This document shows, piece after piece, positions 1,317 through 23,022 of a stretch of DNA of 26,420 nucleotides. Source of the DNA: Bdellovibrionota bacterium FG-1 (GTDB taxonomy: Bacteria > Bdellovibrionota > UBA1018). The notes beneath the pieces were generated by a model, which had not been told where the DNA came from, ran no database searches, and saw only the letters and a program-made list of their open reading frames with translations. How positions within the stretch are numbered: the stretch's first letter is position 1; each line of letters opens with the position of its first letter. The position numbers were made by a program, and so were the translations under genes. The DNA lies in assembly GCA_051382295.1 (NCBI GenBank), contig JBBCAW010000026.1:1-26420 (forward strand), given 5' to 3'.

Positions 1317-1724
1317 CTACTTCTGCACCTCTCCACACTCGAGCATCTGCTTGCCATAATACGGATTACGAATCGGGCCACTCCTTTGCAGCCACGATGC
1401 GTGGGCCATGGGACAAATCACTCGATCGATCCCCATGGGTTTTGCGGTTTCCGCCCAGTTAGTCATGAGCGCCGAAAGCTCTTTGAAATGAGCCCGCGCG
1501 TCTTCAATCGAGATATTCTTCCTCATGCCTTCAGCCGATTTCTGAAGCTTGCCGTCCTTCGTGTTTTTAATTAAATCGAGCGCCGCTACGGATACCTCAG
1601 TCATCGAGTCATTTGCCAGCGCCTCTTGAATCCGGAGGTACGCCGCTAGCCCGTCATCCGATGATTTGGCAAATGCAGATCCCGTTAGCAAAAGACCCAA
1701 AAGCAACATCAAATAAACCTTCAT
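1317..1724 (-). CDS. DUF3347-like periplasmic metal-binding protein, last gene of the cus-like operon
   Basis: Signal peptide; YLRIQEALAND helix; C-terminal CPMA..WLQ...IRNPYYG.QMLECG motif; ATGA overlap with the cusA stop. Confidence 0.8.
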   Translation of the reverse strand: MKVYLMLLLGLLLTGSAFAKSSDDGLAAYLRIQEALANDSMTEVSVAALDLIKNTKDGKLQKSAEGMRKNISIEDARAHFKELSALMTNWAETAKPMGIDRVICPMAHASWLQRSGPIRNPYYGKQMLECGEVQK

Positions 1725-4700
1725 ACCGCTTCTCCTTTATTCATTTCAAAATGCCACTTCCAGATCGTAAAAATGGCCGGATAAACCAAGAGTTCCATGG
1801 CAAATGAAGTGATAATCCCACCCAACATCGGGGCCGCAATTCGTTTCATCACATCGGCACCGGCGTTTGCCGTACTCGACCACATAATAGGCAGAATCGC
1901 CATGACCAGACAAGCCACCGTCATCACTTTGGGACGAAAACGCTTCACTGCACCATGATAAACCGCCTCACGGAGATCGGAAAAAGACCGCATCTGACCC
2001 GACTTTTTAGCCCCTTCGTACGCGATATCTAAATACAAGAGCATAAAAATACCCGTCTCCGCATCCACCCCCATGAGCGCTATCAGCCCCACCCACACAG
2101 CGATGCTCATATTGTATCCCAATAACCAAAGGAGCCACACCGCACCCACGGCCGAAAATGGAACGGCCAAAAGAACAATCGCCGTTTTCGGCCAAGACTT
2201 CGTGTTGGCATAAAGGAGCAGGATCACAATAAAAAGGGTGATCGGAACAATGACTTTGAGCTTTTCTCGGACCCTCATCATGTTTTCGTATTGACCGCTC
2301 CAAGAGAGCGCTATCCCGGTTGGGACTTTGAGCTTGGAAGCCACGAGTTTTTTGGCCTCCTCCACATAACTCCCAATGTTCCGGTCAGCTACGTCGATAT
2401 AGACATAACTCGAAAGCATCCCGTTCTCATTGCGCAACATTGCGGGTCCACTCACCATCTCCAAGTCAGCCACCTCACCCATCGGGATATGCGCCCCGTT
2501 AGGGGTGGCAATCAACACGTGCCTCAAAGAATCGATATTGCTTCTAAAATCACGAGAATACCGCACACTAATCGTATAACGCTCGCGGCCCTCCACCGTC
2601 GTCGAAACAGGATCACCGCCCACCGCAACCATGAGAGATTCTTGAGCCTGGGCAATACTAATCCCGTAGCGCGCCAATTTTTCTCGATTGAAATTAAAGT
2701 CCAAAAAGTACCCGCCCCCGGCGCGCTCCGCATAAACACTTCGCGTCCCTTTCACCGACGGCAGTAGCTGTTCGAGCTCGACCCCTACCCTTTCGAGTTG
2801 ATCCAGATTGGCGCCCATGATTTTGATGCCAACCGGAGTGCGAATGCCCGTAGTCAGCATATCAATGCGGTTTTGGATCGGCATCGTCCAGGCATTAGTC
2901 GTTCCTGGAAATTTTGTCTGCGCGTCGAGTTCTGCTACAAGCTCATCCCAGCTCATAAATCGCGGCCAAATCAACGTCAAAGGCCATTGCATGAACCTCG
3001 GTAAAAACGAGTACCAACGTTTCGCCTCCCGCCACTGCCCCTGTGGCTTAAGGACGATCGTCGTCTCCATCATCGAAAACGGAGCGGGGTCGGTCGACGT
3101 CTCAGCGCGACCCGCTTTCCCAAAAACTCTTTCGACCTCTGGAAAAGATTTGATGATCCGGTCTTGTTTCTGGAGCAGGTTTTGCGCCTCCCTCACCGAA
3201 ATACCCGGCAGCGTCGTCGGCATATAAAGAAGGGTACCCTCGTTCAGCGGGGGCATAAACTCCGAGCCAATCTGGAAATAGATCGGAATCGTAAGAATCA
3301 TCACGACAAGCGCACCCAGCACGACCCGAATACGATGATCAACTACCCAGTGCAAAACCGGTCCATAGTACTTAAAGAAGAATTGACTGATCGGATGATC
3401 GTCCTCGGAGCGGGTCTTTCCAACCAGCACCGCATTTTGAACTTTGGCGAGCCACCGGGGTTTAAAATCCTTGACCGAAAAATAACTCAAACTCACCCGA
3501 ATGGCCGGATCAAGCGTAATGGCAAGAAAGGCCGCCACTAACATCGAGAAATTTTTGGTAAAGGCGAGCGGCTTAAAAAGTTTCCCCTCTTGGGCTTCAA
3601 GCGCAAAGATGGGAATGAAGCTCACAGCGATGACGAGCAAGGAGTAGAAGCTCGCGGGTCCGACTTCCTTGATGGCGGCAATAATCACCTCTTTGACGTC
3701 CCCTTGCCTGCCGTTTTTCTCCCATGCCTCGATATGCTTGTGTGAGTTCTCTACGACAACGATTGCCGCATCCACCATCGCGCCAATGGCAATGGCAATA
3801 CCCCCCAGACTCATGATGTTGGTCGAGATCCCCAAAAAGTGCATAGGGATGAAACTAATGAGCACAGCCAATGGCAAGGTCACGATAGGGATCATCGCAC
3901 TCGGAATGTGCATCAAGAACACCAGGATCACTAAACTCACAATGATCATTTCAAGGGTTAGCTCATGCTTGAGGGTCCCGACCGCCCGGTAAATCAAGTC
4001 GGATCGATCATAGGTCGTGACCAGCTCTACGCCGGGAGGGAGCGATGATTTCAATTCCTTGAGTTTTGCCTTTACGGCGTTAATGACGCGAGTGGCGTTT
4101 TCGCCGTATCTCATGACGATGATTCCACCGACCGTATCCCCCTCCCCGTCCAAATCCGCAATGCCACGCCTGATTTCTGGGCCTGTCGTCACGTGCGCGA
4201 TGTTTTTGATGTAAATGGGAGTTCCGTTTTCATAGCCCAGCACAATATTTTCGAGGTCGTGAATATTTTTAGCATAACCACGCCCGCGAATCATATATTC
4301 AGACCCCGATACCTCCAAGAGGCGGGCGCCGACCTCGTTATTTCCTTCTTTGATCGCCTGGGCTACTTTTTGAATCGGAATTTTATAGGCGAGCAAGGCG
4401 TTGGGATTAATCTGCACCTGATATTGTTTCTGAAAACCTCCAATGGAAGCAACCTCAGCGACCCCCGGAACCGATTGCAAATGAAAACGAAGATTCCAAT
4501 CTTGAAGCGTTCGTAAATCAGCCAGCGAATGCTTCCCACTCTTATCGACGAGCGCATACTGGTAGACCCACCCTACCCCTGTAGCGTCAGGTCCCATTTC
4601 GGTTTTTACCCCTTGGGGGAGCTGTGGCGTAATTTTTGACAGGTATTCAAGCGTCCGAGAGCGCGCCCAATAAGGATCCGTTCCATCTTGAAAGATGACA

Positions 4701-4978
4701 TAAACGTAAGAAAATCCAAAGTCAGAGAAGCCGCGAATATCCTTGACCTTGGGTGCCCCAAGCATCGAGCTGATGATCGGATAGGTGACCTGGTCCTCGA
4801 TAATATCAGGCGAGCGATCCCACCGCGAATAAATGATCACTTGGGTGTCGGATAAGTCAGGAATGGCATCGACTGGAATAGCTTGAAGCGAAAACCATCC
4901 CGCTATGGCCGCTACTCCCACGAGAAGAAAAACCAAAAAACGATTCCGCGCTGAAAAGTCGATCACTTTTTCAAGCAT
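1721..4978 (-). CDS. cusA: CusA/SilA-family heavy-metal RND efflux permease (Cu(I)/Ag(I))
   Basis: Start reset to MLEKVIDFS at 4978 (AGGAG SD upstream). DAIPDLSDTQVII; NIMSLGGIAIAIGAMVDAAIVVVEN; equivalents of the CusA Met triad in LLYMP, FSMMET and RIDML. Confidence 0.95.
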   Translation of the reverse strand: MLEKVIDFSARNRFLVFLLVGVAAIAGWFSLQAIPVDAIPDLSDTQVIIYSRWDRSPDIIEDQVTYPIISSMLGAPKVKDIRGFSDFGFSYVYVIFQDGTDPYWARSRTLEYLSKITPQLPQGVKTEMGPDATGVGWVYQYALVDKSGKHSLADLRTLQDWNLRFHLQSVPGVAEVASIGGFQKQYQVQINPNALLAYKIPIQKVAQAIKEGNNEVGARLLEVSGSEYMIRGRGYAKNIHDLENIVLGYENGTPIYIKNIAHVTTGPEIRRGIADLDGEGDTVGGIIVMRYGENATRVINAVKAKLKELKSSLPPGVELVTTYDRSDLIYRAVGTLKHELTLEMIIVSLVILVFLMHIPSAMIPIVTLPLAVLISFIPMHFLGISTNIMSLGGIAIAIGAMVDAAIVVVENSHKHIEAWEKNGRQGDVKEVIIAAIKEVGPASFYSLLVIAVSFIPIFALEAQEGKLFKPLAFTKNFSMLVAAFLAITLDPAIRVSLSYFSVKDFKPRWLAKVQNAVLVGKTRSEDDHPISQFFFKYYGPVLHWVVDHRIRVVLGALVVMILTIPIYFQIGSEFMPPLNEGTLLYMPTTLPGISVREAQNLLQKQDRIIKSFPEVERVFGKAGRAETSTDPAPFSMMETTIVLKPQGQWREAKRWYSFLPRFMQWPLTLIWPRFMSWDELVAELDAQTKFPGTTNAWTMPIQNRIDMLTTGIRTPVGIKIMGANLDQLERVGVELEQLLPSVKGTRSVYAERAGGGYFLDFNFNREKLARYGISIAQAQESLMVAVGGDPVSTTVEGRERYTISVRYSRDFRSNIDSLRHVLIATPNGAHIPMGEVADLEMVSGPAMLRNENGMLSSYVYIDVADRNIGSYVEEAKKLVASKLKVPTGIALSWSGQYENMMRVREKLKVIVPITLFIVILLLYANTKSWPKTAIVLLAVPFSAVGAVWLLWLLGYNMSIAVWVGLIALMGVDAETGIFMLLYLDIAYEGAKKSGQMRSFSDLREAVYHGAVKRFRPKVMTVACLVMAILPIMWSSTANAGADVMKRIAAPMLGGIITSFAMELLVYPAIFTIWKWHFEMNKGEAV

Positions 4979-4992
4979 ACTTAATCTCCTCG

Positions 4993-6105
4993 TTAATCCG
5001 GCATGCACATCAACATAGGAACATCCCAGTGCTGACCTTTCGCACAAGTGGGCAAGGAGGGAGCGATCGCTTTCAATCTCGATTCTGAATCGATGAGGAA
5101 ATTAGCACTCGTGACGATCTTCTCACCACCCGAAAGGCCCGTGGCGATCGCGACGTCATCTCCCGCCTGGAACTTGACCGTCACCACCCGCGGAATAAAC
5201 TGACCTTTGTCGCCGACGAGAAAAACCCAAGCTTGTTTGCCCGTATCCAGAACCGCGTCAAAGGGCACTGTGACTTGCAGGCCCAATGGAACCAGGATCG
5301 TGACATCAACGTAGGATTCTGGCCGCATCAGAGTCGCGCCTTGCTGAACAAGAATGCGCACCTTAGCCGTGCGCGTCGTAGGATTAATGACCCGATCGAC
5401 CGAGGCCACCTTACCTACCAACCTATTGCCACCTAAAAAACTTGCGGTCATTTCGGCGGAAAGACCGGGCCGTAAATTGGAAAGATCCATTTCGTAAACG
5501 TCGGCGTAAACCCAGACCTGACTTCCGGGTTTATTGATCAGGAGATTTGAATCCGCAGGCCCGCTCGCACTCATTCCAGAGATTTGAAGATCCGAAAGGC
5601 CCAGAATCTTAAGTCGTAACTTTGCTGACTGAACCATCCGCTCAGCCGAATGCTGAACATCCACGAGAGCCGAGTCCTTGACTCGCTCCAGCTGACGGAT
5701 TGCCTCAGTGTACTCGTTTTGTGCCGTATACAATTCAGGATCAAACGCCAACCTCCCCGCCGCACGAATGGATTTAAAGAGGGGCTTTTTTTCGGCAATG
5801 CCTGTTTTAACTCCAATCATTTGACTTCGTTCGGCCGATAGAGAAAAAGCCGCGTGCGCTTCTGGAACCCCACCCAGAGGAGTGTTGACCTGAGATTTAT
5901 TCCCGCCCTCGACTTTGACGAGGTTCATACCGCAGATGGGACACTGGCCGGGACCTTCTTTATGAATCTGAGGGTGCATGGAACAAGTCCAGACCTCTTT
6001 TTGAACAAGTTGCGCGCCTGGGTTTGGCGAATGAGAAGTGCATCCGGACATAAAAGCAAACAATCCCGCAAAAACGAAAAAAAGAATAAAACCGAGCCTG
6101 TTCAT
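4993..6105 (-). CDS. cusB: CusB-like RND periplasmic adaptor with N-terminal heavy-metal-binding domain
   Basis: Lipoprotein-like N-terminus (MSGC); WTCSMHPQI...PGQCPICGMNL; VWVYADVYE, TRTAKVRI, GL..GEKIVTSANFLIDSES. Confidence 0.92.
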   Translation of the reverse strand: MNRLGFILFFVFAGLFAFMSGCTSHSPNPGAQLVQKEVWTCSMHPQIHKEGPGQCPICGMNLVKVEGGNKSQVNTPLGGVPEAHAAFSLSAERSQMIGVKTGIAEKKPLFKSIRAAGRLAFDPELYTAQNEYTEAIRQLERVKDSALVDVQHSAERMVQSAKLRLKILGLSDLQISGMSASGPADSNLLINKPGSQVWVYADVYEMDLSNLRPGLSAEMTASFLGGNRLVGKVASVDRVINPTTRTAKVRILVQQGATLMRPESYVDVTILVPLGLQVTVPFDAVLDTGKQAWVFLVGDKGQFIPRVVTVKFQAGDDVAIATGLSGGEKIVTSANFLIDSESRLKAIAPSLPTCAKGQHWDVPMLMCMPD

Positions 6106-7376
6106 AAACTGCCCCCAAATGGAAGATTACTCAAAGAAACCCCCGCTAGCTCTTCGAGGCGTGCCAAATTATCCGCATATTGCGCGAGATTTCGATAAAA
6201 AGCGATGCGGGTTTCATAAAGCGAACGCTCGCTGTCCAGAAGTTCAAGAAAACTAGTCCGACCCGCGAGGTAGGCACCACGAGAAGAATTGAGCACACTT
6301 GTAGCCTGGGGGATGAGCGCGGTTTGGTAGATTTGAAGGAGCTTTTCCCGAGAGCCCACCTTGGCCGTAAAGGACCGGATATCAGCCTGGAGGTTAAGTA
6401 TGGTTTTGTCGAGATTTCTCTCAGCTTCAAGTTGGTGGGCTGAGGCCTGCGCGACCTCGCTCGTTTGTTTGGCAAAAAACCAGAGGGGAATGGAGAGTTC
6501 AATACTTGCGGCATAGGCATTGTCCGGCGCATTTCCAAAGGCGCGGCGGTAAGACAGCATGAAATCGGGGGCGTAGCCCCAAAGTGCGACCGACTTTCGG
6601 GTTCCAGCCTCATCCACTAAATGCTCACCTTGCTGGACGCGCTTGGCGTTGGAATGGGCGAGAGCCGGAACTTGATCCAGAGCTACGTTCAGCTTAGGCA
6701 CTAAAAGTTCCTGGGCCGGGAGTTGAATGGGTTCCGCCGCATTCTGACCCAGAACAGCACCGAGCATGCCCTCCATGGTGCTGCGCTCCTCCTGCGCCAC
6801 GAGGAGTTCCATTTCAATCTTGGTCTGCTCGACATGGGCCTTCATCTCATCCTGTTGGGGTACCGCTCCCGTGGCATGACGGGATTCGGCCGCCCGCGCG
6901 ACCTCTCGAAGGGTCTCGCGTTGGGCTTGAAGGAGCGCTAGAATTCGATCCATCGTAAAAAGGTTGTAATATCCTGCGATCACCTTTTGTCTGATCTCGA
7001 GTTTTTTTGCATCGAATTCTGAATCCGCGCTCCGGGCGCGCGCGCGCTGAGCCGCGCCCATCAAAAAGTATTTTGCTGGAAATTTCACTTCTTGGCTCAC
7101 CGACCACATGTTCATCGGACCCATTTGCTGCTCCATGAAATTGAGACCGCTCTCATGCATCAGACCTATTTTGGGATTTTCCAAAGAATACTGCAATCGG
7201 ATGGCTGAATGCTCGGCATCGGCCGTTGCGATGGAAGCACCGAGTTCAGGATTGGCGCCTAGCGCGCGGGAGAGCGCTTTTTCAAGGGAAAGAGCGGGTT
7301 CATTTGCCTGAGCCGTCTCGGCCAAGAATAAGAGCGCACTTACGTTCAAAAACAAAAGTAGAACGAATGTTTTCAT
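6102..7376 (-). CDS. TolC/CusC-family outer-membrane channel
   Basis: Start reset to MKTFVLLL at 7376 (AAGGA SD). Signal peptide; OEP repeats (LSLEKALSRALGANP, LSIPLWF, AYLAGRTSFLELLD); ATGA overlap with cusB. Confidence 0.9.
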   Translation of the reverse strand: MKTFVLLLFLNVSALLFLAETAQANEPALSLEKALSRALGANPELGASIATADAEHSAIRLQYSLENPKIGLMHESGLNFMEQQMGPMNMWSVSQEVKFPAKYFLMGAAQRARARSADSEFDAKKLEIRQKVIAGYYNLFTMDRILALLQAQRETLREVARAAESRHATGAVPQQDEMKAHVEQTKIEMELLVAQEERSTMEGMLGAVLGQNAAEPIQLPAQELLVPKLNVALDQVPALAHSNAKRVQQGEHLVDEAGTRKSVALWGYAPDFMLSYRRAFGNAPDNAYAASIELSIPLWFFAKQTSEVAQASAHQLEAERNLDKTILNLQADIRSFTAKVGSREKLLQIYQTALIPQATSVLNSSRGAYLAGRTSFLELLDSERSLYETRIAFYRNLAQYADNLARLEELAGVSLSNLPFGGSL

Positions 7377-7543
7377 TAAAAAGTCCTTATAATACAAACA
7401 CCTATATCGTATACAGAGTTCTTCATTACGGGTGGTTTGGGGGCGTTCCTAGAAATCAATACGCATACCCCACGACGTTTGTGACACCGCAGCCAAAAAC
7501 AACTGGAACACTCAAAGAGTTCTCAGTCTTACTTCAACGATGT

Positions 7544-7571
7544 TTGACTTCTGCTAAGGTAATGGTACCTT
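7544..7571 (+). promoter_or_regulatory. Putative sigma70 promoter of the parA-rep operon
   Basis: TTGACT (7544-7549), 16-nt spacer ending in TGG, then TACCTT (7566-7571; extended -10), 35 nt before ATG 7607. Confidence 0.45.
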
Positions 7572-7606
7572 TTAACAAAGAACCCTTGCAACAAGGGGAA
7601 GGCTAT

Positions 7607-8869
7607 ATGAATACCACTTCAGAGACTCAGGGAACCGAACTCTTAGTACAAGCAGCAAACATCCATCAAACCCTTCAAGAGCCCCTTATTCCGGTGGTCG
7701 CTCCTGAACCTGCACCGAGTGTGAGCACTTATGACCCGCCTATTTCCAGGAAACTCATGGAAGGGCTCTGTGGATTAAGTACAAACACTCTCATCAAGTA
7801 TGAGATGGAGGGGGTGATTCACCCCTTTAAAGTGAAGTACGGCGGCCTAGAAATCGTGACCTATAAGGTGACCGATGTGCAGGCTGTGTTTAAAAAGCGC
7901 GGGGTGAGCTTCCGGAAACGTGCGTCGGCTGAAGTGATTTCGATTTTTTCTCAAAAGGGCGGCGTAGGCAAATCTGCTTTTGCTCAGCATCTGGGGGCTT
8001 TGCTTTCAATGGTGGGAAAGGTCTTGGTCATTGACCTGGACTCTCAGAGCGATGTGACCTCTTTGTTTGGGTTAAATGTTAAGTTTTCTGACCTAGTGGC
8101 CGAGGATGCTGAACTTGACCCGACGATTGCGGAGCTCATGGACTGGAAACTCAAAAACGGTCAAGAGTCCCCCTATCGTAAAATCGCCTTTCAGGATGTC
8201 GTCAAAAAGATCAGCCCCACCCTTCACGTCATTCCGGCTGATCTCGACTTGGGCGAAATCAATTATAGCCTGAACCGACTCGACCTTGAGGATAAGATTG
8301 ACGCAGAGGGTAACATTCGGCCGGCCATCCTTTATATGATTAAAGACGTGATCGACAGCATCAAAGATCAGTACGACTTTGTTTTGTTTGACTGTCCGCC
8401 CAATATCGAGACCTGTAACGTCAATGCGCTTTTTGCCTCCAATCGGATTATTGTTCCGCTTGAGCTTGAAGCCAAGTGCCTAAAGACGATGCGCCGGAAT
8501 GAGGATTTTCTTAACCGTCTCAAAACCCTTCATCCAGGGTTTCAATGGGACAAGATCCTGGTGGTTCCCAACAAGTTTCGGCGCGAAAATATTAAAATTA
8601 AGGCTCTCGCCAAACTTCAAGACATCTACTTCGACCGCGAAGATGTTCAACTTTCGCAGGCCGTATTTCCAAATGGCGCCATTATTGACCGATGCTCAGA
8701 GGCCCGCGAGCCGGTTTTTGTGGCGGCGACCCGCTATGGCAAAGAGTTTAAAACCGGCGTCCCACAGGCGAAGGAGTTTACCGACCTTTTTTGGGTCGTG
8801 ATGCATGAAATTTTAGATCTTCCCATTGAACGACTTGTTTTCTCTGAACAGCAAAACATGGAGGCTTAA
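7607..8869 (+). CDS. parA: ParA/SopA-family partition ATPase with N-terminal MerR-like HTH (type Ia-like)
   Basis: Start reset to ATG 7607 (AAGGGGAAGG upstream). Deviant Walker A QKGGVGKS, A' KVLVIDLDSQ, Walker B YDFVLFDCPP; N-terminal LCGLSTNTLIKYEMEGVIHP resembles the HTH of plasmid ParA/RepA proteins. Confidence 0.93.
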   Translation: MNTTSETQGTELLVQAANIHQTLQEPLIPVVAPEPAPSVSTYDPPISRKLMEGLCGLSTNTLIKYEMEGVIHPFKVKYGGLEIVTYKVTDVQAVFKKRGVSFRKRASAEVISIFSQKGGVGKSAFAQHLGALLSMVGKVLVIDLDSQSDVTSLFGLNVKFSDLVAEDAELDPTIAELMDWKLKNGQESPYRKIAFQDVVKKISPTLHVIPADLDLGEINYSLNRLDLEDKIDAEGNIRPAILYMIKDVIDSIKDQYDFVLFDCPPNIETCNVNALFASNRIIVPLELEAKCLKTMRRNEDFLNRLKTLHPGFQWDKILVVPNKFRRENIKIKALAKLQDIYFDREDVQLSQAVFPNGAIIDRCSEAREPVFVAATRYGKEFKTGVPQAKEFTDLFWVVMHEILDLPIERLVFSEQQNMEA

Positions 8870-10773
8870 TGGGCTTGTTGGATGCGGACGCGGAAGAACT
8901 CAAAAACAGCGCTAAGGCGATCTCCTCGTCGGGGACTGGTTCAGGCCGCAAGGTCAACCAATCGGGCTTAGGCGCGTTCAAGGGCCTTTCCAAATACTCC
9001 AATCTTACCGCAAAATACCGATCACCGCCCCCTTCTCCATCCGTGGAACAATCGCGTGGAACAACTCAAGCATCTGAGAAACCAGCTCAAGTGAGTGCAA
9101 ACTCAGTGCAAAGTGAGTGCGAAGTCAGTGCAGAGAAATCACCCTCCCCTTCGATTTTGGCTGTGTTTGCAAAACCAGAGAAGTCAGTGCAAAGTGAGTG
9201 CGAAGTCGGTGCAAACCCGGTGCAAAGTGAGTGCAAACCCGGTGCGAAGTCAGTGCAGATCTCTTTGGGCGAAACCACCCAAGTTATTGAAATAGAAAAT
9301 ATAAGTGAAAATCAAAGTCAGTGCGAAGTCGGTGCAATAAGGTTAACTTTGCCGCCTATTGTTGTACCCGTCGACAAGAGCGCGACGAGCCCGATCAAGT
9401 CAGTGCAGAGTGAGTGCGAAGTCGGTGCAGATCTATCGAACTCAGTGCAAACTCAGTGCGATGTAGGTGCAAAGTCAGTGCAACCCAGTATGCCTGCAGA
9501 ATCACCAGACGAGCCTTTATTACCTCAAGTGAAAAAAGAGGCCCCCCAAAGGTCACAAAATCAAGTCAGTGCAAAGTCAGTGCAAAGTCGGTTTGAACTC
9601 CGTGCCAACTCAGTGCAAAGTCCTGTTGAAGTCGGTGCACCTGAAATACTTATCCACAGCTTCACGCCGTCAAGTCCGGGCGAAGTCCGTTCCCAAGTCC
9701 GTGCACCAGTCGGTGCAAAGTTAGTGCGAAGTCCGTGCAAACTTGAACCTTTAGAAAGTATCACTGCACTCGCGGGAGCTCAGCGAATTGTCATTGAATT
9801 CCTATTTGACCGCTGCCTTTGGAACAACTCTTTAGTCACTCCCCCCATCACAAAACAACAGCTCATCGAAGGTACTCAACTCCTTGAAGACACGGCTCTT
9901 TCTGCTATTAAGCGCCTTCGCAAAAAAGCAATCATCGATCGCTATGCGTACAAGGACGGCCAAGCTGGTTGGACCCAGTATCAATTGGCTGACGATAGCT
10001 ACCGCGAATTGCTTCATCTTCATCAATACAGTGCAAAGTCGGTGCAAAGTCAGTCTAAAGTCAGTTCCAAAGTCGGTTCAGAAGTCAGTGCAACGCCCTC
10101 TAGTAGTAGTAGTTTTAATAAGAGTGTTTCAGAAAAACTACTCACTACTGAAAACCTCGATCCAAACATCATCGCTCTCACGCAACACGAGGGTTGGAGT
10201 CAAGTGGACTATTCACCCTTGCGAGCGAGCCCCATTCACTTTACGCGAGAGCATCTTGAACAGATCCGTAAAGAAGGCAAGCTCAGTCACCTCCAAGTTC
10301 AAGAATCAATCAATGCCTTTGCCTATGATATGGGCAATCAAGAATACTCTCGCACCAAGCGCAGCCCTCTTAATTTCTTTATGGCCATTGTCAAAGTGAA
10401 AGGGGAGGTCTATCAATCCGTTGTGCCGGGCTATCAACCCCCCGAGAATCTCGATCTACAAGATTACCTGACCGAGTTGGAAACCAAGAACCGCTCAAAA
10501 CAAGAACTTCTGAAAACGCTGTTTACGGCCAAATTTGAGGAATGGTTTGCCGCGCTGACCGGGGATCAAATTAATATTTATTGCGGTTGGTCACGAGATT
10601 TCGAACAACAAAAAGAACATATCAAAACGCTTTTCAAAAAATACCTTTGGCTCGAAGTCCGCTCCCATCCCCAGATTGACGCTAAAGCGCTTCATTTGCC
10701 CTCAGGTGCCGATTTATCACCGTCAACGCAGGCGTCTTCTGCCTCTTCTGCGGATGGCCTAGAGATCGAGTAG
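8869..10773 (+). CDS. Putative replication initiator / centromere-binding protein: low-complexity repeat-encoded N-half, central winged helix (about aa 295-382), helical C-terminal region
   Basis: TAATG coupling to parA; wHTH-like ITKQQLIEGTQLLEDTALSAIKRLRKKAIIDRYAYKDGQAGWTQYQL; intragenic 11-bp arrays and a DnaA box. The CDS is well supported; the function is inferred. Confidence 0.65.
   Translation: MGLLDADAEELKNSAKAISSSGTGSGRKVNQSGLGAFKGLSKYSNLTAKYRSPPPSPSVEQSRGTTQASEKPAQVSANSVQSECEVSAEKSPSPSILAVFAKPEKSVQSECEVGANPVQSECKPGAKSVQISLGETTQVIEIENISENQSQCEVGAIRLTLPPIVVPVDKSATSPIKSVQSECEVGADLSNSVQTQCDVGAKSVQPSMPAESPDEPLLPQVKKEAPQRSQNQVSAKSVQSRFELRANSVQSPVEVGAPEILIHSFTPSSPGEVRSQVRAPVGAKLVRSPCKLEPLESITALAGAQRIVIEFLFDRCLWNNSLVTPPITKQQLIEGTQLLEDTALSAIKRLRKKAIIDRYAYKDGQAGWTQYQLADDSYRELLHLHQYSAKSVQSQSKVSSKVGSEVSATPSSSSSFNKSVSEKLLTTENLDPNIIALTQHEGWSQVDYSPLRASPIHFTREHLEQIRKEGKLSHLQVQESINAFAYDMGNQEYSRTKRSPLNFFMAIVKVKGEVYQSVVPGYQPPENLDLQDYLTELETKNRSKQELLKTLFTAKFEEWFAALTGDQINIYCGWSRDFEQQKEHIKTLFKKYLWLEVRSHPQIDAKALHLPSGADLSPSTQASSASSADGLEIE
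9089..9739 (+). repeat. Six tandem arrays of an 11-bp direct repeat (consensus AAGTCRGTGCR), about 33 units
   Basis: Counted by eye: 9089-9132 (4), 9181-9257 (7), 9315-9336 (2), 9397-9482 (3+4), 9563-9639 (7), 9672-9739 (6, two 12-bp steps). Confidence 0.95.
9650..9658 (+). promoter_or_regulatory. DnaA box
   Basis: Exact TTATCCACA between repeat arrays 5 and 6. Confidence 0.7.
10025..10092 (+). repeat. Seventh array of the same 11/12-bp repeat (6 units), directly after the wHTH-coding segment
   Basis: AATACAGTGCA AAGTCGGTGCA AAGTCAGTCTA AAGTCAGTTCC(A) AAGTCGGTTCA(G) AAGTCAGTGCA, followed by AT-rich TAGTAGTAGTAGTTTTAATAAG. Confidence 0.9.
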
Positions 10774-11187
10774 AGAAAATTTTCGATGGCCACCGCGCGT
10801 TCGCCGGCAGGGAATATTCCCTGAATCTGCCTCACGTCGTACTTCGTTGATATCCATGCCTCTCATCTGGGCAAATTTGGCGATTGAAAGGTCGTAGATC
10901 TTGGTTTCTGCGCATTCTGAAACCATGAGGCGAGGGGAGGGGAGCTCTTCGCCCCGTTCTAATCGCGCCGCAGCGGCCGTGTGGGCTTTTAAGAGCGAAT
11001 CAAACACCTTGCGCCCGAGTTCCTGAAAGAAGAGGGGCCACTCCGCAAGGCTGGCGTGGTCGTCTGGATGCCGAACGGCTTGCATCGAAAGCTCCACAAA
11101 GCCTGGCGCGCTAAAATATACATGAGGCTTGTTGAGCTGTACGGATAATTCGATACGAGGGCTGTGCTTCCGTGAAAATTTACTCAT
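10759..11187 (-). CDS. Small regulator: HicB-like N-terminal region plus C-terminal BldC/Xis-like (HTH_17) winged helix
   Basis: C-terminal LSIAKFAQMRGMDINEVRREADSGNIPCRRTRGGHRKF parallels BldC (RTLGGHRRY); YFSAPGF and RLERGEELPSP resemble HicB. Converges on, and overlaps by 15 nt, the rep-like gene. Confidence 0.65.
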   Translation of the reverse strand: MSKFSRKHSPRIELSVQLNKPHVYFSAPGFVELSMQAVRHPDDHASLAEWPLFFQELGRKVFDSLLKAHTAAAARLERGEELPSPRLMVSECAETKIYDLSIAKFAQMRGMDINEVRREADSGNIPCRRTRGGHRKFSLLDL

Positions 11188-11193
11188 TGGCTA

Positions 11194-11229
11194 AAATCTA
11201 TCAAATCTAATAAATCTATCAAATCTAAT
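11194..11229 (-). promoter_or_regulatory. 4 x 9-bp direct repeat (2 x 18 bp) covering a putative leaderless promoter
   Basis: Plus strand AAATCTATC AAATCTAAT AAATCTATC AAATCTAAT. On the minus strand it reads TTGATA-16-TAGATT-7 nt-ATG(11187). Confidence 0.75.
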
Positions 11230-15168: not shown

Positions 15169-16374
15169 ATGACAGAAGCCTATATTTTCGACGCAATCCG
15201 AACCCCTCGCGGGAGAGGAAAAAAAGATGGGTCTTTATACGAAGTCAAACCGATCAGCCTTCTGACGGGGCTGATGAAAGCGCTCGAGCAGCGCCTGAAG
15301 CTTGATACGTCACGCGTCGATGACGTGATTATCGGCTGCGTGACCCCGGTGGGCGATCAGGGCGCATGCATCGCCAAGACGGCGGCACTCGCGGCGGGCT
15401 GGAGCCAAGAAATGGCCGGTGTTCAAATTAATCGATTTTGCGCCTCAGGCCTGGACGCTGTGAATCTCGCCGCCCAGAAAGCCCGCGCGGGCTGGGACGA
15501 ACTCATCGTTGCAGGTGGTGTGGAGTCGATGTCGCGTGTGACGATGGGAAGTGACGGCGGCGCTTGGGCACTGGACCCTGAGACCAACCTCGGCACGGGC
15601 TTCGTTCCGCAAGGTATCGGTGCGGATCTGATCGCGACTCTCGAAGGCTTCACACGCGAGGACGTCGATCGTTTCGCGGTGGGTTCGCAGCAAAAGGCCG
15701 CGGCCGCACGCAAGAATGGTCATTTCGTGAAATCCATCATCCCCGTGCGAGATGCTAGCGGCCTCGTGATTCTTGAGCATGACGAACTGATTCGCGAGAA
15801 TACAACCGTCGAAGGTCTAGGCACCCTTAAGGCGGCGTTCGATAAGCTGGGCGGGATGGGTTTTGACTCGGTTGCGTTGCAGAGGTACCCGCATGTCGAG
15901 CGGATCAGGCACGTCCATCACGCTGGCAACTCGTCAGGAATGGTCGATGGCGCGGCACTCGTTTTGATCGGCACGGAAAAATGTGGAAAAGAGCTGGGAT
16001 TGAAGCCGCGCGGTCGCATCGTCTCGGTGGCCTTGGCCGGAACCGATCCTACGATCATGCTGTTGGGGCCCGGGCCCGCCACGCGTAAAGCGCTCACGCG
16101 AGCCGGTTTGAAAGTTGCCGATATTGACCTTTTCGAGGTCAACGAGGCCTTTGCCTCGGTCGTCATGCGCTTTATCCGTGAGATGGACATTCCGGCGGAA
16201 AAAGTCAACGTGAACGGGGGCGCGATCGCCATGGGGCACCCATTGGGCGCGACGGGGGCGATGCTGGTAAGCACCGCGCTTGACGAACTCGAGCGGCGGA
16301 ACAAACGTTACGGATTGATCACGTTGTGTGTGGGCGGCGGTATGGGAATCGCCACGATCATCGAAAGATTATAA
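15169..16374 (+). CDS. fadA: Acetyl-CoA C-acyltransferase (3-ketoacyl-CoA thiolase)
   Basis: NRFCASG (nucleophile Cys), [29 protein letters not shown]. Confidence 0.95.
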
Positions 16375-16387
16375 GGGGATTCTCCAA

Positions 16388-18556
16388 ATGAGCGAAACCA
16401 TTCATTATGAAAAAAGCCAAGAGAACATCGTCACGTTGACGATGGATATGCCGAATTCCTCCGCCAACATCATGAACGGGGCATTCATCGAGGCGTTTGA
16501 GGCCATTTTGCAGCGCCTCGAGCGCGAAAAGAACGAAATCGCTGGCGTCATCCTGACCTCCGCGAAAGCGACTTTTTTCGCGGGTGGCGATCTGAGCGAG
16601 CTGATTGAGGTTAGGCCCGAGCAGGCTGAACTTTTTTTTAAGCACGTTGAGCATCTCAAAGGAATGCTGCGTAGGCTTGAGAGTTGGGGCAAGCCGGTCG
16701 TGGCCGCCATCAACGGTGCGGCCCTGGGCGGCGGCTGGGAGCTCGCGCTCGCTTGCCATCATCGCATTTGCCTCGATCATTCATCCATTCAGCTCGGCAT
16801 GCCCGAGGTGACGTTGGGTCTTTTGCCGGGTGCCGGGGGCGTAATTCGTACGGTGCGTTTGCTGGGACTCCAAGAGGCGTTTCCTTATCTCGTGGAGGGC
16901 AAGAAGATCCGTCCGCAAGAAGCACTCGAAAAAGGCCTGGTGCACGAGCTCGCAAAAGACCCTGTCGAGATGATGGCGAAAGCCTCGGCGTGGATTCTTG
17001 CTCATCTACAGGCCAAGGCGCCTTGGGATAACCCGGAATATAAGATTCCGGGCGGGACGCCCAGCAATCCCCAGGTGGCGCAGATGCTCATGGTTGCTCC
17101 CGCGATGCTGCGAGAGAAGACGAGGGGTTGTTACCCAGCCCCCGAGGCCATTCTTGCGGTCATGGCTGAAGGCGCGCAGGTGGACTTCGATACTGCGCTT
17201 CGAATCGAGAGTCGTGCCTTTGTCAATCTTGCCACTAGCCAGGTTTCCAAGAACATGATTGGCACGATGTGGTTCCAGCTCAACAAGATCCATGCGGGCG
17301 CGAGCCGTCCTGATGGGTATCCTCAGTGGAAGGCCAATCAGGTCGCCGTGCTCGGCGCCGGCATGATGGGCGCGGGCATCGCCTATGCGTGTGCCACTCG
17401 CGGAATTCGCGTGGTTTTGAAGGATGTGAGCAGCGAGTCCGCCGAGAGGGGTAAGTCTTATACTGAAAAACTTCTTGCCAAAAAGGTTTCGCGCGGACAA
17501 ATGACTGAGGCCAAAAAATCCGATATTTTGGGCTTGATTCGCCCGACGGCCGACGCCAAAGACCTCGCGGGATGCGATCTCATGATCGAAGCCGTGTTTG
17601 AGAACCGTGAGCTCAAATTCAAAGTCATCGGCGAGGCGGAGCCTTACCTCGCGCCGAACGCGTTGCTTTCGTCGAATACGTCTACGCTTCCGATCACGGG
17701 GCTTGCACCGGCGACCAAAACGCCAGAAAGGTTCATCGGGCTGCATTTTTTCTCGCCCGTGGATAAAATGGATCTCGTGGAGATCATCGTCGGCAAGAAA
17801 ACTTCAGATGAAACGATTGCGCGCGCATTTGACTTTGTAATGCAGATTGGCAAGACGCCCATAGTGGTGAACGATAGCCGAGGTTTTTTCACTAGTCGCG
17901 TGTTTACCACTTATGTTTTCGAAGGCATGGCTATGCTCGCGGAAGGGCTCACCCCCAGCGCGATTGAGACCGCCGCGTTGATGGGCGGTATGCCGGTAGG
18001 CCCGCTTGCCGTGACGGACGAGGTGTCGATCAGTCTTTGTGCCCACATCATGGCGCAAACGCGGGCGGACTTCGAGGCGGAAGGCAAGAAGTATGTCCCG
18101 CATCCGGCCGAAGATACGGTGATCCGCCGGATGATCAGTGAATTCAAACGACCTGGAAAAGCGGCAGGCGGCGGTTTTTACGAATATCCGAAAGATGGAA
18201 AGAAATTCCTTTGGCCGAATTTGCAGACTCATTATGTTCAGAAGGATCGACAAATCCCCTTGGAGGACATGCGAGACAGGCTTTTGTTTATCCAAGCGCT
18301 CGAAACCGTGCGCATTCTCGAAGAGGGCGTGTTGAGAACAGTGCGCGACGGCAATGTCGGGTCGATTTTAGGACTCGGATTTGCGCCGTGGTCAGGTGGA
18401 GCCCTGCAGTACATTAACCAATATGGCCAGGACGGAAAGTCGGGCCTCAAGCGCTTTGCGGCGCGCGCTCACGAACTCGCTACTCGTTACGGCGAGCGTT
18501 TCGCGTCGCCTGCGCTTTTGCTCAAAAAGGCCGAGTCTGGTGAAATTTTCGAATAG
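16388..18556 (+). CDS. fadB: Multifunctional enoyl-CoA hydratase / 3-hydroxyacyl-CoA dehydrogenase (FadB/FadJ alpha subunit)
   Basis: Start reset to MSETIHY at 16388 (AAGGGG SD). FAGGDL, ALGGGWE, PEVTLGLLPGAGG; GAGMMGAG, SSNTSTL, GLHFFSP. Confidence 0.95.
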   Translation: MSETIHYEKSQENIVTLTMDMPNSSANIMNGAFIEAFEAILQRLEREKNEIAGVILTSAKATFFAGGDLSELIEVRPEQAELFFKHVEHLKGMLRRLESWGKPVVAAINGAALGGGWELALACHHRICLDHSSIQLGMPEVTLGLLPGAGGVIRTVRLLGLQEAFPYLVEGKKIRPQEALEKGLVHELAKDPVEMMAKASAWILAHLQAKAPWDNPEYKIPGGTPSNPQVAQMLMVAPAMLREKTRGCYPAPEAILAVMAEGAQVDFDTALRIESRAFVNLATSQVSKNMIGTMWFQLNKIHAGASRPDGYPQWKANQVAVLGAGMMGAGIAYACATRGIRVVLKDVSSESAERGKSYTEKLLAKKVSRGQMTEAKKSDILGLIRPTADAKDLAGCDLMIEAVFENRELKFKVIGEAEPYLAPNALLSSNTSTLPITGLAPATKTPERFIGLHFFSPVDKMDLVEIIVGKKTSDETIARAFDFVMQIGKTPIVVNDSRGFFTSRVFTTYVFEGMAMLAEGLTPSAIETAALMGGMPVGPLAVTDEVSISLCAHIMAQTRADFEAEGKKYVPHPAEDTVIRRMISEFKRPGKAAGGGFYEYPKDGKKFLWPNLQTHYVQKDRQIPLEDMRDRLLFIQALETVRILEEGVLRTVRDGNVGSILGLGFAPWSGGALQYINQYGQDGKSGLKRFAARAHELATRYGERFASPALLLKKAESGEIFE

Positions 18557-18978: not shown

Positions 18979-21954
18979 TCACATGAGCCCAGGTTTACCC
19001 TCCAGAAAGCGCGCAAGCTCGGTCGCGATCATCGCCACGTGCTCGCGTTCCTCGGCCGCAAGCTCGCGATAGAGGCGCCCGTGGGGCGAGTCCTCGGGAT
19101 ACGTCTTCTCGTGCGACTCGAAGAAAACCACGGCACATCGCTCCAGCACCAGCGCCAGGCGCAAGAGCGCGGCTGGGTCTTTGGCATCGTGTTCAACTCC
19201 CGCGTAGACGGCGATTTGGCTGGGGGACAGGCCCGTTCCCGAAAGGGGTGGAACCTCGATGTGATAACGGCGCGACAGGGTCGCAGCGTGCTCCTTTTCC
19301 ATTTCGGCCAAGCGTCCAAAAAGCGCACGGAGCGCTGGATCAGTGGCTGCTGCTGCGCCTTGCGAGTAAAACGCTAATCCCCCGAGTTCGATTTCCATCG
19401 CGTGGCGAATGGCACTACGTGACTCTTGGCTGGCCAGCTCAGGCTGGTGGTCGATTGCGAGCTTGCCGCCACACATCGCGCATAGTCCGTAGGGGAATGC
19501 AAAGCCTTCATAGACCTTGCTGCACTGGGTGCAATGCCACTTCAGAAGGGAGTCGGCGCAACAAATGTAGCTTTCTTCGGTTTCGCCAGGCTCAACTGGC
19601 CCCTCGATCGGGCGATGACATTTTGGGCAGCTACGGCCGTGTTCAGCTAACTGGACCGCTTGGTCTGCACCAGTCGTGACGCCGGCCTTTTTGTTATTCA
19701 GGTAGTCGACCATTGACTTGGCCGCGCGTTTTCCCGCACCCATCGCCAGAATAACGGTGGCGCCGCCTGTGACGATATCGCCGCCGGCGTACACGCCGGG
19801 CAGGTTGGTCGCCTGGGATTTGTCGTCAGCTTGGATATAACCCCATTTGTTCATCGCGAGATCCGGGGTGGCTTGGCGAATGATGGGGTTGGCTCTCGTA
19901 CCGAGCGCGTAGATGACAGTGTCGCAGTCAAAGGTGATGAATGCGTCTTTTACCGGAACGGGTTTTCGGCGACCGGAGGCATCAGGTTCGCCGAGTTCCA
20001 TCTTTTGGCACACCAATGCCTGCACACACCCCTGTTCGTCGAGCTTGATTTCGGTGGGGGCGAGCAGCCAATTAAAATGAATCCCTTCCTCTTTGGCGTG
20101 ACGGAGTTCTTCGATACGCGCAGGGGCTTCGCTCTCGGTGCGGCGGTACACGCAGTGCACTTCTTCGGCACCCAGTCTACGAGCCACCCGCAGACAGTCC
20201 ATCGCCGTATTGCCGGCGCCCAATACGACCACGCGTTTGCCCATTCCTACGGGCGTGTCTTCATACGGAAACCGATCGCCGCCCATGAGGTTCACGCGGG
20301 TGAGAAACTCGTTGGCGCTTAGAACTTGCGCACCGTGCTCGCCGGGAATTCCGAGAAATGACGGGTAGCCGGCACCGGTGCCGATAAATACGGCGTCGTA
20401 TTCCATCTCTTTCATGAGCTGGTGTACGCCGAAGGTTTTGCCGACAACTTTGTTGGTTTCGATCTTCACGCCGAGTTTGCGTACGCTATTAATCTCGCGT
20501 TCGATGATGTTGCGGGGGAGACGAAATGAGGGGATGCCATATTGTAAAACTCCGCCTGAAATATGCAGGGCTTCATAGATCGTCACCTCGGCGCCGGCCT
20601 TGGCGAGGTCGGCCGCGCAGGCCAGACCCGCCGGGCCTGAGCCTACAATGGCCACGCGGCCAAGACTGCCAGCATGGGCGGGAACTCGTACTTCGCTCGG
20701 TCTGGCATAGTCGCCGACGAAGCGCTCGAGTCGACCGATGGCGACGGGTTCGATGTTCTTTTTGAGTACGCATTGGGATTCACATTGGCTCTCTTGAGGA
20801 CAAACACGGCCGCAGATCGAGGGGAATGGGTTGCTCCCATTGATCACATCCAGCGCGCCGGTGAAGTCGCGAATCAGTAAATGCCGAATGAAGTTTGGAA
20901 TATCAACGTTGACGGGGCAACCCGCCACACAGCGAGGGATCTTGCATTGGATGCAGCGTTCGGCCTCCTTGAGGGCATCTTCAATGGAGTAACCGAGGTT
21001 GACCTCAAGAAAATTGTGGCTCCGTTCTTCAGCGTTCCGTTCGCGCATAGGCGTGGCGTGCGGCGCTAGCTCTTTGACTTTTTTGTAGCTGCGTTTTTCT
21101 TCTTTGAAAAGCTTCTGGTCGAGGTTGCATACGTGTGCAAAGTCTTCATTGGAGCGCTTTTCCTGGGCTTTAAACCGCGCTTGACGCTGGATGAGCTCGC
21201 CAAAGTCGACGCCGTGGGCGTTAAAGTCGGGGCCGTCCACACACGCAAATTGGACCTGACCGTCGACGGTGACCCGACATGAACCGCACATGCCGGTTCC
21301 ATCCACCATGATTGAGTTGAGACTCACCACTGTGCGGACATTCTGCGGACGTGTGACTTCGGTGCAGGCCCTCATCATGGGGAGTGGGCCAATTGCGATG
21401 ACTAAATCTGGTTTTTTTGAGCCGCCCACCGCGTCGGCGAGCGCGGCCGTGACAAAGCCGGGGCGTCCGTAAGAGCCATCATCGGTGCAGACGATGAGTT
21501 CGTCGGTGTAGGGCTTGAACTTGTCTTCCCAGAAAACGAGATCCTTGTTTCGAAAGCCAAGAATGGCCGTCGTCCGGCAGCCTGCTTTTTTGAAGGCGCG
21601 CAGTTGCGGGAAAATCGGTGCAACGCCGAGGCCGCCGCCCACGAGTACGACGTGTTCCAGTTTTTCAGTGTGGCTCTCAAGACCGAGCGGCCCGACGAAG
21701 TCGGTAAAGGAATCGCCGACGTTGTAGTTGCGAAGCATCTCAAGGGTGGTTTTGCCGACGGCTTGAATCACAATGGTCACCTTGCCGCGTTGGGGGTCGA
21801 AGTCGGCGATGGTCAGAGGGATTCGTTCTCCGCCTTCATAGAGTCTTAACATCACGAATTGGCCCGGACGGGCCGACTTTGCAACGTCTGGAGCAAGGAC
21901 GTCCCAGAGAAACGTGGTTTCTGAAAACTGCTGACGGTGAGTAATCTGATACAT
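18979..21954 (-). CDS. Fused NfnA(SudB)-NfnB(SudA/GltD-like) ferredoxin:NADP+ oxidoreductase with C-terminal Cys-rich and rubrerythrin/ferritin-like domains
   Basis: Start reset to MYQITHR at 21954. NfnA: ERIPLTIAD, GGGLGVAP, MVDGTGMCGSCRV, CVDGP. NfnB: RCIQC..P.C..GCP, CGRVCPQESQCE, GSGPAG, GAGNTAMD, GGDIVTGGATVILAMGAG. Tail: CPKC/CC/CTQC/CAMC, then two E..ExxH helix pairs. Confidence 0.9.
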   Translation of the reverse strand: MYQITHRQQFSETTFLWDVLAPDVAKSARPGQFVMLRLYEGGERIPLTIADFDPQRGKVTIVIQAVGKTTLEMLRNYNVGDSFTDFVGPLGLESHTEKLEHVVLVGGGLGVAPIFPQLRAFKKAGCRTTAILGFRNKDLVFWEDKFKPYTDELIVCTDDGSYGRPGFVTAALADAVGGSKKPDLVIAIGPLPMMRACTEVTRPQNVRTVVSLNSIMVDGTGMCGSCRVTVDGQVQFACVDGPDFNAHGVDFGELIQRQARFKAQEKRSNEDFAHVCNLDQKLFKEEKRSYKKVKELAPHATPMRERNAEERSHNFLEVNLGYSIEDALKEAERCIQCKIPRCVAGCPVNVDIPNFIRHLLIRDFTGALDVINGSNPFPSICGRVCPQESQCESQCVLKKNIEPVAIGRLERFVGDYARPSEVRVPAHAGSLGRVAIVGSGPAGLACAADLAKAGAEVTIYEALHISGGVLQYGIPSFRLPRNIIEREINSVRKLGVKIETNKVVGKTFGVHQLMKEMEYDAVFIGTGAGYPSFLGIPGEHGAQVLSANEFLTRVNLMGGDRFPYEDTPVGMGKRVVVLGAGNTAMDCLRVARRLGAEEVHCVYRRTESEAPARIEELRHAKEEGIHFNWLLAPTEIKLDEQGCVQALVCQKMELGEPDASGRRKPVPVKDAFITFDCDTVIYALGTRANPIIRQATPDLAMNKWGYIQADDKSQATNLPGVYAGGDIVTGGATVILAMGAGKRAAKSMVDYLNNKKAGVTTGADQAVQLAEHGRSCPKCHRPIEGPVEPGETEESYICCADSLLKWHCTQCSKVYEGFAFPYGLCAMCGGKLAIDHQPELASQESRSAIRHAMEIELGGLAFYSQGAAAATDPALRALFGRLAEMEKEHAATLSRRYHIEVPPLSGTGLSPSQIAVYAGVEHDAKDPAALLRLALVLERCAVVFFESHEKTYPEDSPHGRLYRELAAEEREHVAMIATELARFLEGKPGLM

Positions 21955-21962
21955 AGGTGCCT

Positions 21963-22223
21963 CTATTTTAAAATCCATTCGCGCATGAGTTGCTTAATTT
22001 GGGTTTGATAACGGACTCCGTGAAGTTCTGATTTTTTTCTAAAAATGTCTAGCAGATCTGTGGGAATTTTGATGCTGATGAGTCGGCTTTTGGTTGGGAT
22101 TAAGGATTCTCGATTCGCATGCAGTTTCCTAAAGTCCTCCAGAAACTTGACGATGTTCAATGTGCTCATCGTCTGGCATTGCTTGAGATATTCGGGAGAA
22201 AAATATTGAACGATCTTTTTCAT
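21963..22223 (-). CDS. BrnA/CopG-like ribbon-helix-helix antitoxin-type protein
   Basis: SRLISIKIPTDLLDIFRKKS...GVRYQTQIKQLM matches the BrnA/CopG C-terminal pattern; ATGA overlap with the upstream NTase. Confidence 0.75.
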   Translation of the reverse strand: MKKIVQYFSPEYLKQCQTMSTLNIVKFLEDFRKLHANRESLIPTKSRLISIKIPTDLLDIFRKKSELHGVRYQTQIKQLMREWILK

Positions 22224-22684
22224 GGTTCTAAACCCTTGAGGGCTGCAACATCTTGAATATCTTGCGGTCTTCCGGCTTCAGTCTTCATGCGGATTAAATC
22301 TTTGACGGATGCTACCTTCAGGGTAACCCGCCCTACCTTAAGGGCTTTGACTTTTATTTGATTCAAATCCTCCGCGAGGAGGATGTCAACCGTTTCGGCT
22401 GGATTTTTGGGATTAAAAAAATTCCAAGCGAGCAAGTTTCTGTTTTGAATATATTCTCTGCGAAATTCAAAAACATTCTCTGCCCGTAGGGGGAGGCGGG
22501 ACTCCAATCCCAGGGAATGGAGCGCGTCTTCGATTCCTAGGAGTTCCTTTTTTTCTAAATGAATGACCAAGTCGATGTCGACCGTTCCTCGTACCGCCCC
22601 ATGCAGCGCGACGGCGTAGCCACCCACAATGGCATAATTAACATGGTGTTTGTCCAGGGTTTGAACGAGTCGCAAAAGGAACAT
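22220..22684 (-). CDS. Pol-beta-superfamily nucleotidyltransferase (DUF6036/AbiEii-like), putative toxin
   Basis: Start reset to MFLLRLV at 22684. VGGYAVALHG, RGTVDIDL, third Asp in VDI, C-terminal K..AGRPQD..D. Confidence 0.8.
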   Translation of the reverse strand: MFLLRLVQTLDKHHVNYAIVGGYAVALHGAVRGTVDIDLVIHLEKKELLGIEDALHSLGLESRLPLRAENVFEFRREYIQNRNLLAWNFFNPKNPAETVDILLAEDLNQIKVKALKVGRVTLKVASVKDLIRMKTEAGRPQDIQDVAALKGLEP

Positions 22685-22686
22685 AA

Positions 22687-22704
22687 GTATATATGAGTAT
22701 ATAC
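22687..22704. promoter_or_regulatory. Inverted-repeat operator upstream of the NTase-RHH operon
   Basis: GTATATA-TGAG-TATATAC (perfect 7-bp arms), 2 nt from the ATG. Confidence 0.65.
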
Positions 22705-22734
22705 CCACGAAAGTCGAAAATAAAAACTCTTTTT

Positions 22735-23022
22735 TCATCTAATGCCATTGGATTGGACGCGCTCGAATAGTAGTGTGAGAAGAACTAAAAACAAGCCCCC
22801 TCCCAACAGAGGGTTGGAAAGGGGAATTTTCGTAAGTTCACTGATTTTGAACAATATACCCACAAAAAAAACAAAAAACCCAATGCTGAGGCTTGCCACC
22901 AGCCAGAGCAGTGATTTGATCTTACGAAGGGCGAGATCCCCTTCCTTTTCGGCGAGGGAGGTCCCCATCTTAATCAGTGACGATCCGACATCCGACCAAG
23001 ACGTATGGGGCCCGAGTTTCAA
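22735..23022 (-). CDS. Small two-TM membrane protein (YqjE/holin-like)
   Basis: TTG start overlapping the upstream TGA (TTGA); two hydrophobic helices. Confidence 0.5.
   Translation of the reverse strand: MKLGPHTSWSDVGSSLIKMGTSLAEKEGDLALRKIKSLLWLVASLSIGFFVFFVGILFKISELTKIPLSNPLLGGGLFLVLLTLLFERVQSNGIR

Follow-up and report, generated by a model that had tools for sequence, protein, structure and literature searches.

The window analysed here is the whole 26,420-nucleotide stretch of contig JBBCAW010000026.1 (positions 1 to 26,420, forward strand; assembly GCA_051382295.1) from Bdellovibrionota bacterium FG-1. It carries a two-gene module in which parA, encoding a Walker-type partition ATPase, runs directly into a gene for a 634-residue protein, termed here the partner, that is likely a replication initiator and may also bind a centromere. 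The features of the module are as follows.

7607–8869, + strand: parA, Walker-type partition ATPase of 420 amino acids (aa) with a helix-turn-helix (HTH)-like N-terminal extension (profile matches, sequence).
8860–8871, + strand: GGAGG ribosome-binding site and TAATG stop/start overlap (sequence).
8869–10773, + strand: 634-aa partner gene, likely replication initiator and candidate centromere-binding protein (sequence, profile and structure work).
8869–9021, + strand: N-terminal arm, aa 1–51 (acidic 2–12, basic 26–51), candidate ParA-binding segment (conservation, co-inheritance).
9089–9739, + strand: six clusters with 26 copies in all of an 11-bp repeat, a candidate array for centromere function or copy control that encodes a low-complexity linker.
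9751–10044, + strand: winged HTH (wHTH) domain, about aa 295–392 (AlphaFold2 predicted local distance difference test, pLDDT, >90; generic wHTH matches).
10025–10092, + strand: candidate iterons of the origin, six 11-bp repeats of which the last two are 12 bp apart, in the same position in most family members.
10101–10149, no strand assigned: (TAG)4, AT-rich spacer and inverted ACT tract, candidate DNA-unwinding element, translated as SSSSS..TT.
10180–10680, + strand: C-terminal helical domain, aa 438–604, candidate helicase- or primase-recruiting domain (model pLDDT 92.6; Atlas lead below 0.9).

ParA matched AAA_31 (E 7e-31), and its best NCBIfam matches, both below cut-off, were RepABC-type RepA (TIGR03453) and SopA. 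Its Walker motifs are intact and its N-terminal extension spans about 100 aa, so that it has the form of a type Ia ParA with an N-terminal HTH, the HTH being assigned from the RepA and SopA matches and from homologue annotation (MerR HTH on 2 of 101 ParA homologues). The GGAGG lies at 8860–8864, and the TAA of parA (8867–8869) shares its last base, 8869, with the ATG of the partner gene. A sequence-only reading of this DNA had proposed a type Ia-like parA coupled in translation to the 634-aa gene through TAATG, and this description holds. A 547-aa reading of parA from TTG 7226 was rejected in favour of ATG 7607 on the ribosome-binding site and the lengths of homologues; no sigma-70 promoter was found at 7300–7700. 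Across relatives, parA stood directly upstream of the partner gene in 27 of 30 loci (two misses were gene fragments and one an orphan), and the partner followed parA in 16 of 17 close loci. One family member, at L138:5306-6544 (G241:C12), has both arrays and cassette but no parA within 20 kb.

The partner gene contains 32 copies of AAGTCRGTGCA (up to two mismatches) against 0.43 expected, in all three frames, so that the intragenic arrays noticed from the letters are real; synonymous-codon shuffles (n=500) gave a mean of 11.6 copies and a maximum of 20. The 11-mers are mostly 11 bp apart, with 26 ahead of the wHTH and six behind it, and at least 10 copies of the gene's own repeat were present in 36 of 42 family genes. 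Directly behind the last array lies a cassette in which a (TAG)n run and an inverted (CTA)n tract are separated by an AT-rich spacer. In a survey of 42 genes, in which a few tract calls are probably mislocated, the tract was present in 35 genes, coincided with the gene's weakest 40-mer in 29 of these and was followed by an inverted tract in 32; in the window gene the weakest 60-mer starts at 10098, at the cassette. Codon use within the cassette was counted in 25 of 34 genes, those in which the script found the run: 75 of 91 serine codons were AGT (26% overall) and 72 of 76 threonine codons ACT (34% overall). As judged from these comparisons, the cassette is constrained as DNA. In three relatives (pBdHM1, L055 and L056) the gene has no cassette, and 11-mers, TAGATAG and an AT-rich run occur instead in non-coding DNA upstream of parA. 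The 31 upstream copies in the pBdHM1 gene are kept although the origin cassette sits elsewhere, which argues that the upstream copies have a second job, as centromere or in copy control.

Cumulative GC skew places the same region at a candidate origin. The skew minimum fell at the module in all seven closed circles, and with the module removed it was still 65–3,802 bp from the module's edge (Fisher p ~1e-5, the circles being not fully independent). Skew maxima lay at 0.30–0.67 of the circle, roughly opposite, as in bidirectional replication, and within the window the minimum is at 10867. DnaA boxes had no consistent position in 34 genes, so dependence on DnaA is unsupported. The TAG tract was also considered as a set of DnaA-trios, as these are defined in the accessible part of PMC10797057; there is a resemblance, but the non-coding copies read TAGATAG, with period 4, and the idea is kept as a lead only.

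The partner protein had no Pfam or NCBIfam match, and a PDB sequence search returned nothing significant, including to any solved initiator. An AlphaFold2 model covering residues 290–604 shows a confident wHTH, a disordered stretch at 392–431 and then the helical C-domain. AspA (4rs8) and TubR (3m8f) were among the top Foldseek rows for the wHTH, at a non-significant E of ~0.01 and tied with many regulators. Among 88 family members, a Pfam scan gave no RepA_N (PF06970) match at E<=0.01 and no RP-C, DnaA-family or Phage_rep_O match, while PHROG "replication initiation" and "O-like" families matched weakly in four and two members, respectively. The double wHTH of Rep3 initiators was seen neither in the Pfam scan nor in the structure model. 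The Atlas neighbours, likewise weak leads, were HTH_36 and RP-C clusters at 0.92–0.94 and, for the C-domain, Bac_RepA_C-type clusters at 0.83, with L_lactis_RepB_C also reached. The fold searches suggested in the sequence-only reading thus left the wHTH generic and the C-domain unmatched, with no assignment to a Rep, DnaD or phage O fold.

At the other end of the protein, the basic segment GRKVNQSGLG..KY (residues 26–51) lies behind acidic residues 2–12, which are equally conserved, and the first 40 residues carry a net charge of +1. The flexible basic arm described earlier is therefore present as a segment, but not at the very start of the protein. The arm has 12 invariant positions in 22 homologues and is kept as protein, with proportions of synonymous and nonsynonymous differences (pS and pN) of 0.84 and 0.126 in 11 genes.

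A 10-sequence profile of the family retrieved 2,133 clusters at E<=0.001 and 1,597 at 1e-10. The family occurs in 24 of 401 genomes of the phylum and the window's ParA type in 2 of 127 genomes of the class; in these genomes the distribution is patchy, like that of a mobile element. Relatives were found on 90–92 plasmid records, from Piscirickettsia, Legionella and Bdellovibrio, six of which were examined whole and two in part, and none was found in phages or viral contigs. The closest relative is pBdHM1, a closed 161-kb plasmid whose ParA is 78% identical to that of the window and whose arm is the same; on this basis the window probably belongs to a large, low-copy plasmid or chromid. Close ParA homologues were seen on contigs of up to 478 kb, and pBdHM1 carries phage-like cargo (ribonucleotide reductase, dUTPase, RecA, SSB, ClpX and many small open reading frames, ORFs). 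Two further modules occur in the same genome: C29, beside mobC and a relaxase gene, and C81, a 12.2-kb contig whose ends share a 127-bp repeat, i.e. a closed circle. C81 (L007), a compact test replicon, also encodes a coupling protein like TraD, a PIN toxin pair, a resolvase and, by eye, a relaxase-like protein, and it contains a purine-rich tract and an inverted repeat near 1980–2160. MOB-suite assigned rep_cluster_1053 to the three P. salmonis family plasmids examined, so that a marker in the module region may already be in that database.

The expectation that ParB would be missing was borne out in the window and beyond. TIGR00180 had five matches in the genome and none on the window contig, which also lacked a GxxRxxA-type motif, and no parB was found in 30 loci and 17 close loci within limited flanks. 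No ParB exceeded cut-off on seven complete plasmids (PF02195 0/5 and 0/1, TIGR00180 0/5) or on C81; weak ParB_N matches on two P. salmonis plasmids were below cut-off, and the one read out lay within a phage tail gene. No parS palindrome was found on C26, C29 or C81 and only lone 3-mismatch matches on plasmids, in a motif search that recovered the host copy at C31:81555 as a control and would miss a plasmid-specific parS. Among 297 flanking ORFs at 30 loci, with a reach of ~1.5 kb, the only conserved small genes were those for toxin-antitoxin systems, resolvases and relaxases, and the small ribbon-helix-helix (RHH) gene that accompanies type Ib parA was not seen, parA abutting the large gene. 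As to other initiators, Rep3 was absent from five plasmids and no known initiator family was found in 48 chosen unnamed ORFs. In strain LF-89, pPSLF89-3 has parA and the family gene without parB, while pPSLF89-2 has parAB without the family.

Some observations on other partition loci belong here. On pPSLF89-2, an unannotated 356-aa gene outside the family (L140:197-1267, RS34920) is divergent from parAB and is possibly another unrecognised initiator. The host genome has five ParB-like genes, four with their own ParA; at L136 (G000:C130:30135-32200) a second parAB pair, apparently on the chromosome, lies next to a trigger-factor-like gene (by eye), and its ParA is extended at the N-terminus. 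On C60 (L135:4063-6154), parA is followed by a 90-aa ORF without Pfam match and by a Phage_rep_O initiator with 18-bp repeats flanking its wHTH; this layout resembles that of the module, but the initiator is another one and the 90-aa ORF may be a small partner gene.

Comparison of 40 modules indicated which parts are inherited together. Repeats follow the wHTH: pairs with close wHTH and distant ParA shared 8.85 of 11 repeat positions (n=13), against 6.0 in the reverse case (n=50) and a background of 6.2. Arm similarity was 0.32 in pairs with close ParA and distant wHTH and 0.10 in the reverse, with 0.11 for the adjacent linker, and the nearest neighbour of the arm (29 cases) agreed with that of ParA in 13, of the wHTH in two and of neither in 14. 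In the cleanest case, C29 versus L020, ParA is 91% and the wHTH 28% identical, the arms are near-identical and the repeats differ. There is an even chance that the module stands for a widespread, so far nameless class of replicon built from two swappable halves, ParA plus arm and repeats plus wHTH plus origin, in which one protein serves as initiator, centromere binder and ParA activator, its gene is origin and centromere at once, and ParA drives segregation with neither ParB nor another dedicated partner.

Taken together, the skew minima, the DNA-constrained cassette and its relocation to non-coding DNA in three relatives make it very probable that the 634-aa protein is a replication initiator with an intragenic origin. 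That the same protein is also a centromere-binding partner of ParA, standing in for ParB, is given somewhat better than even odds; the tracking of the wHTH by the repeats, the arm's tendency to go with ParA and its conservation at the protein level support this without demonstrating it. The two-gene "ParA + Rep" system proposed earlier has accordingly fared differently in its two parts: closed plasmids, skew minima, cassette and wHTH-tracking repeats support the initiator half well, while arm conservation, the arm's tendency to follow ParA and the lack of a conserved small gene give the ParA-activator half real but indirect backing.

Under this dual reading, the wHTH would bind the 11-mers, one per helical turn; binding at the six copies behind the wHTH would open the adjacent cassette and start bidirectional theta replication, and the C-terminal domain would recruit host replication proteins, as described for pSK41 RepA in the accessible part of PMC5703833. 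We hold these initiator steps to be highly probable. Given them, it is reasonably probable that protein on the 26 upstream copies arrays many arms side by side, which would bind and stimulate ParA dimers in place of the ParB clamp. Arrayed arms could thereby reach ParA with the avidity that ParB gains by clamp closure; the N-terminal activating arms of ParABS and ParF-ParG must be juxtaposed, according to the portion of PMC12462528 available. Origin, centromere and both activities would then lie within one gene.

Other readings fit parts of these data. The partner might be an initiator whose arm contacts ParA for replication or operon control, much as Soj does with DnaA, without DNA movement, the upstream arrays being copy-control iterons. 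Control iterons are common, this account fits all of the initiator evidence as well as arm-ParA co-inheritance, and the HTH-like extension of ParA would suit autoregulation; we nonetheless consider it improbable, as neither the 1–2-copy plasmids (accessible part of PMC6963756) nor a plasmid of 161 kb would then have any recognisable partition complex, and the Walker motifs of ParA are intact. It is likewise doubtful that the protein is an initiator only, with an unrecognised small RHH or HTH protein, KfrA or a host ParB as the partner of ParA and the arm used for oligomerisation or another contact. Here the HTH_17 gene found in 8 of 17 close loci, KfrA on pBdHAGR2, the five host ParB-like genes, the ~1.5-kb reach of the neighbour survey and similar options proposed for Rickettsia (in the part of PMC9004397 available) are set against the facts that the HTH_17 gene is accompanied by an integrase gene and by 9-bp repeats of its own, that the C81 circle (12 kb) offers no candidate of this kind, that no parS was found, that four host ParBs have their own ParA, and that the contrast cases C60 and pPSLF89-2 (parAB, without the family) carry a third gene. 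A centromere-binding protein only, of the TubR/AspA wHTH type, with replication started otherwise, is very unlikely: AspA and TubR do rank high in the Foldseek list, in which no row is significant, and no solved initiator matched significantly, but the cassette beside the last array, its relocation with repeats and the skew minima would be unexplained, and no other known initiator was found on the closed circles.

Several points weigh against the dual reading or its initiator part. The wHTH fold is generic, with regulators, AspA, TubR and ORC subunits matching about equally (best Z 9.5, many ties), and nothing matched in a fold search of the C-domain (best Z 5.9). In the window gene the weakest 40-mer is at 9280, outside the cassette; gene orientation is a partial confounder of GC skew, and the window contig is not closed. 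Extra iteron arrays in known plasmids serve copy control (P1 incA, F incC). The arm bears only a loose likeness to LGKGL, the motif of the host ParB, and in some members it is not basic; it also lies physically beside parA, so that linkage contributes to co-inheritance. Furthermore, a single clade accounts for 40 of the 50 ParA-close pairs; across the seven independent ParA clades, the arm follows ParA clearly in three, weakly in two and not in two; and a cruder whole-matrix test, with rough domain cuts and seven rows lost, gave partial correlations of 0.24 with ParA and 0.26 with the wHTH. Finally, KfrA and HTH_17 genes occur on some family plasmids (KfrA on pBdHAGR2).

Known systems share parts of this organisation. 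In the accessible part of PMC5703833, the RepA_N initiators of pSK41 and pAD1 and the HTH_36 hybrid of pPR9 have a wHTH N-domain, an origin-encoded linker with Rep boxes and a helical C-domain. This architecture is common to the partner, and the Atlas leads (Bac_RepA_C, L_lactis_RepB_C, HTH_36) point the same way; the partner differs in that it has no RepA_N Pfam match, carries an arm and a further repeat-encoded region ahead of the wHTH, is constantly coupled to parA and occurs in Gram-negative hosts. For the rickettsial plasmids pRAM18, pRAM32 and pRM, the available text of PMC3244465 and PMC9004397 describes a parA plus dnaA-like region that suffices for shuttle vectors, without parB, leaves the ParA partner open and mentions neither repeats nor iterons. 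Both systems thus combine parA and an initiator without parB, although family members have no DnaA domain. The claim of a new partition/replication architecture is narrowed by this precedent and hinges on the putative dual role. The origin of repABC replicons lies inside the initiator gene, as the likely origin does in the module, and the window ParA is most like RepA (TIGR03453, below cut-off), but the module has two genes only, no RepB/ParB, parS or RepC domain, and an origin of iterons. With type I ParABS and type Ib ParF/ParG it shares a Walker ParA and a candidate N-terminal activating arm, while it has no CTPase clamp or small RHH protein and its DNA-binding domain is that of a putative initiator. 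In the lambda O gene iterons are followed by an AT-rich tract, as in the module; the partner has no Phage_rep_O match and no phage relatives.

The searches thus define an unnamed family of >1,500 clusters, which neither Pfam nor NCBIfam contains and which is likely a new initiator family with an intragenic origin; it would be categorically new if the dual role were shown. The literature search, outside which lay most subscription papers and all supplements, found nothing on the family or on a dual initiator/partition protein. PMC6963756 reports neither a replication protein nor an origin or iterons on pPSLF89-3; the family likely supplies the missing initiator and origin of this P. salmonis plasmid and of Legionella pLPL, which has no annotated rep. 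It likely also includes the initiator and origin of three native Bdellovibrio plasmids, a vector source for predatory bacteria. If true, the dual role would be a partition architecture joining replication and segregation in one protein, and would make the question of orphan plasmid ParAs testable with a 50-residue arm.

Two further features adjoin the module.

10759–11187, − strand: accessory gene of HTH_17/BldC type (profile match), with a HicB-like N-terminus by eye.
11194–11229, no strand assigned: likely operator of the accessory gene, made up of four 9-bp direct repeats on its upstream side (repeat scan).

An HTH_17/MerR gene is divergent from a tyrosine recombinase gene in 7 of 17 loci (L051, L009:21339-22888), the recombinase being missing there in the window. 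By eye, the cargo of the window includes a metal-efflux operon (1317–7397), a thiolase and fatty-acid oxidation complex (15169–18556) and a 999-aa oxidoreductase fusion (18979–21978), and distant paralogues of window cargo occur on other contigs. A DUF6036 nucleotidyltransferase gene with a BrnA-like antitoxin lies at 21963–22738 and a TIGR02147 gene at 25204–26028.

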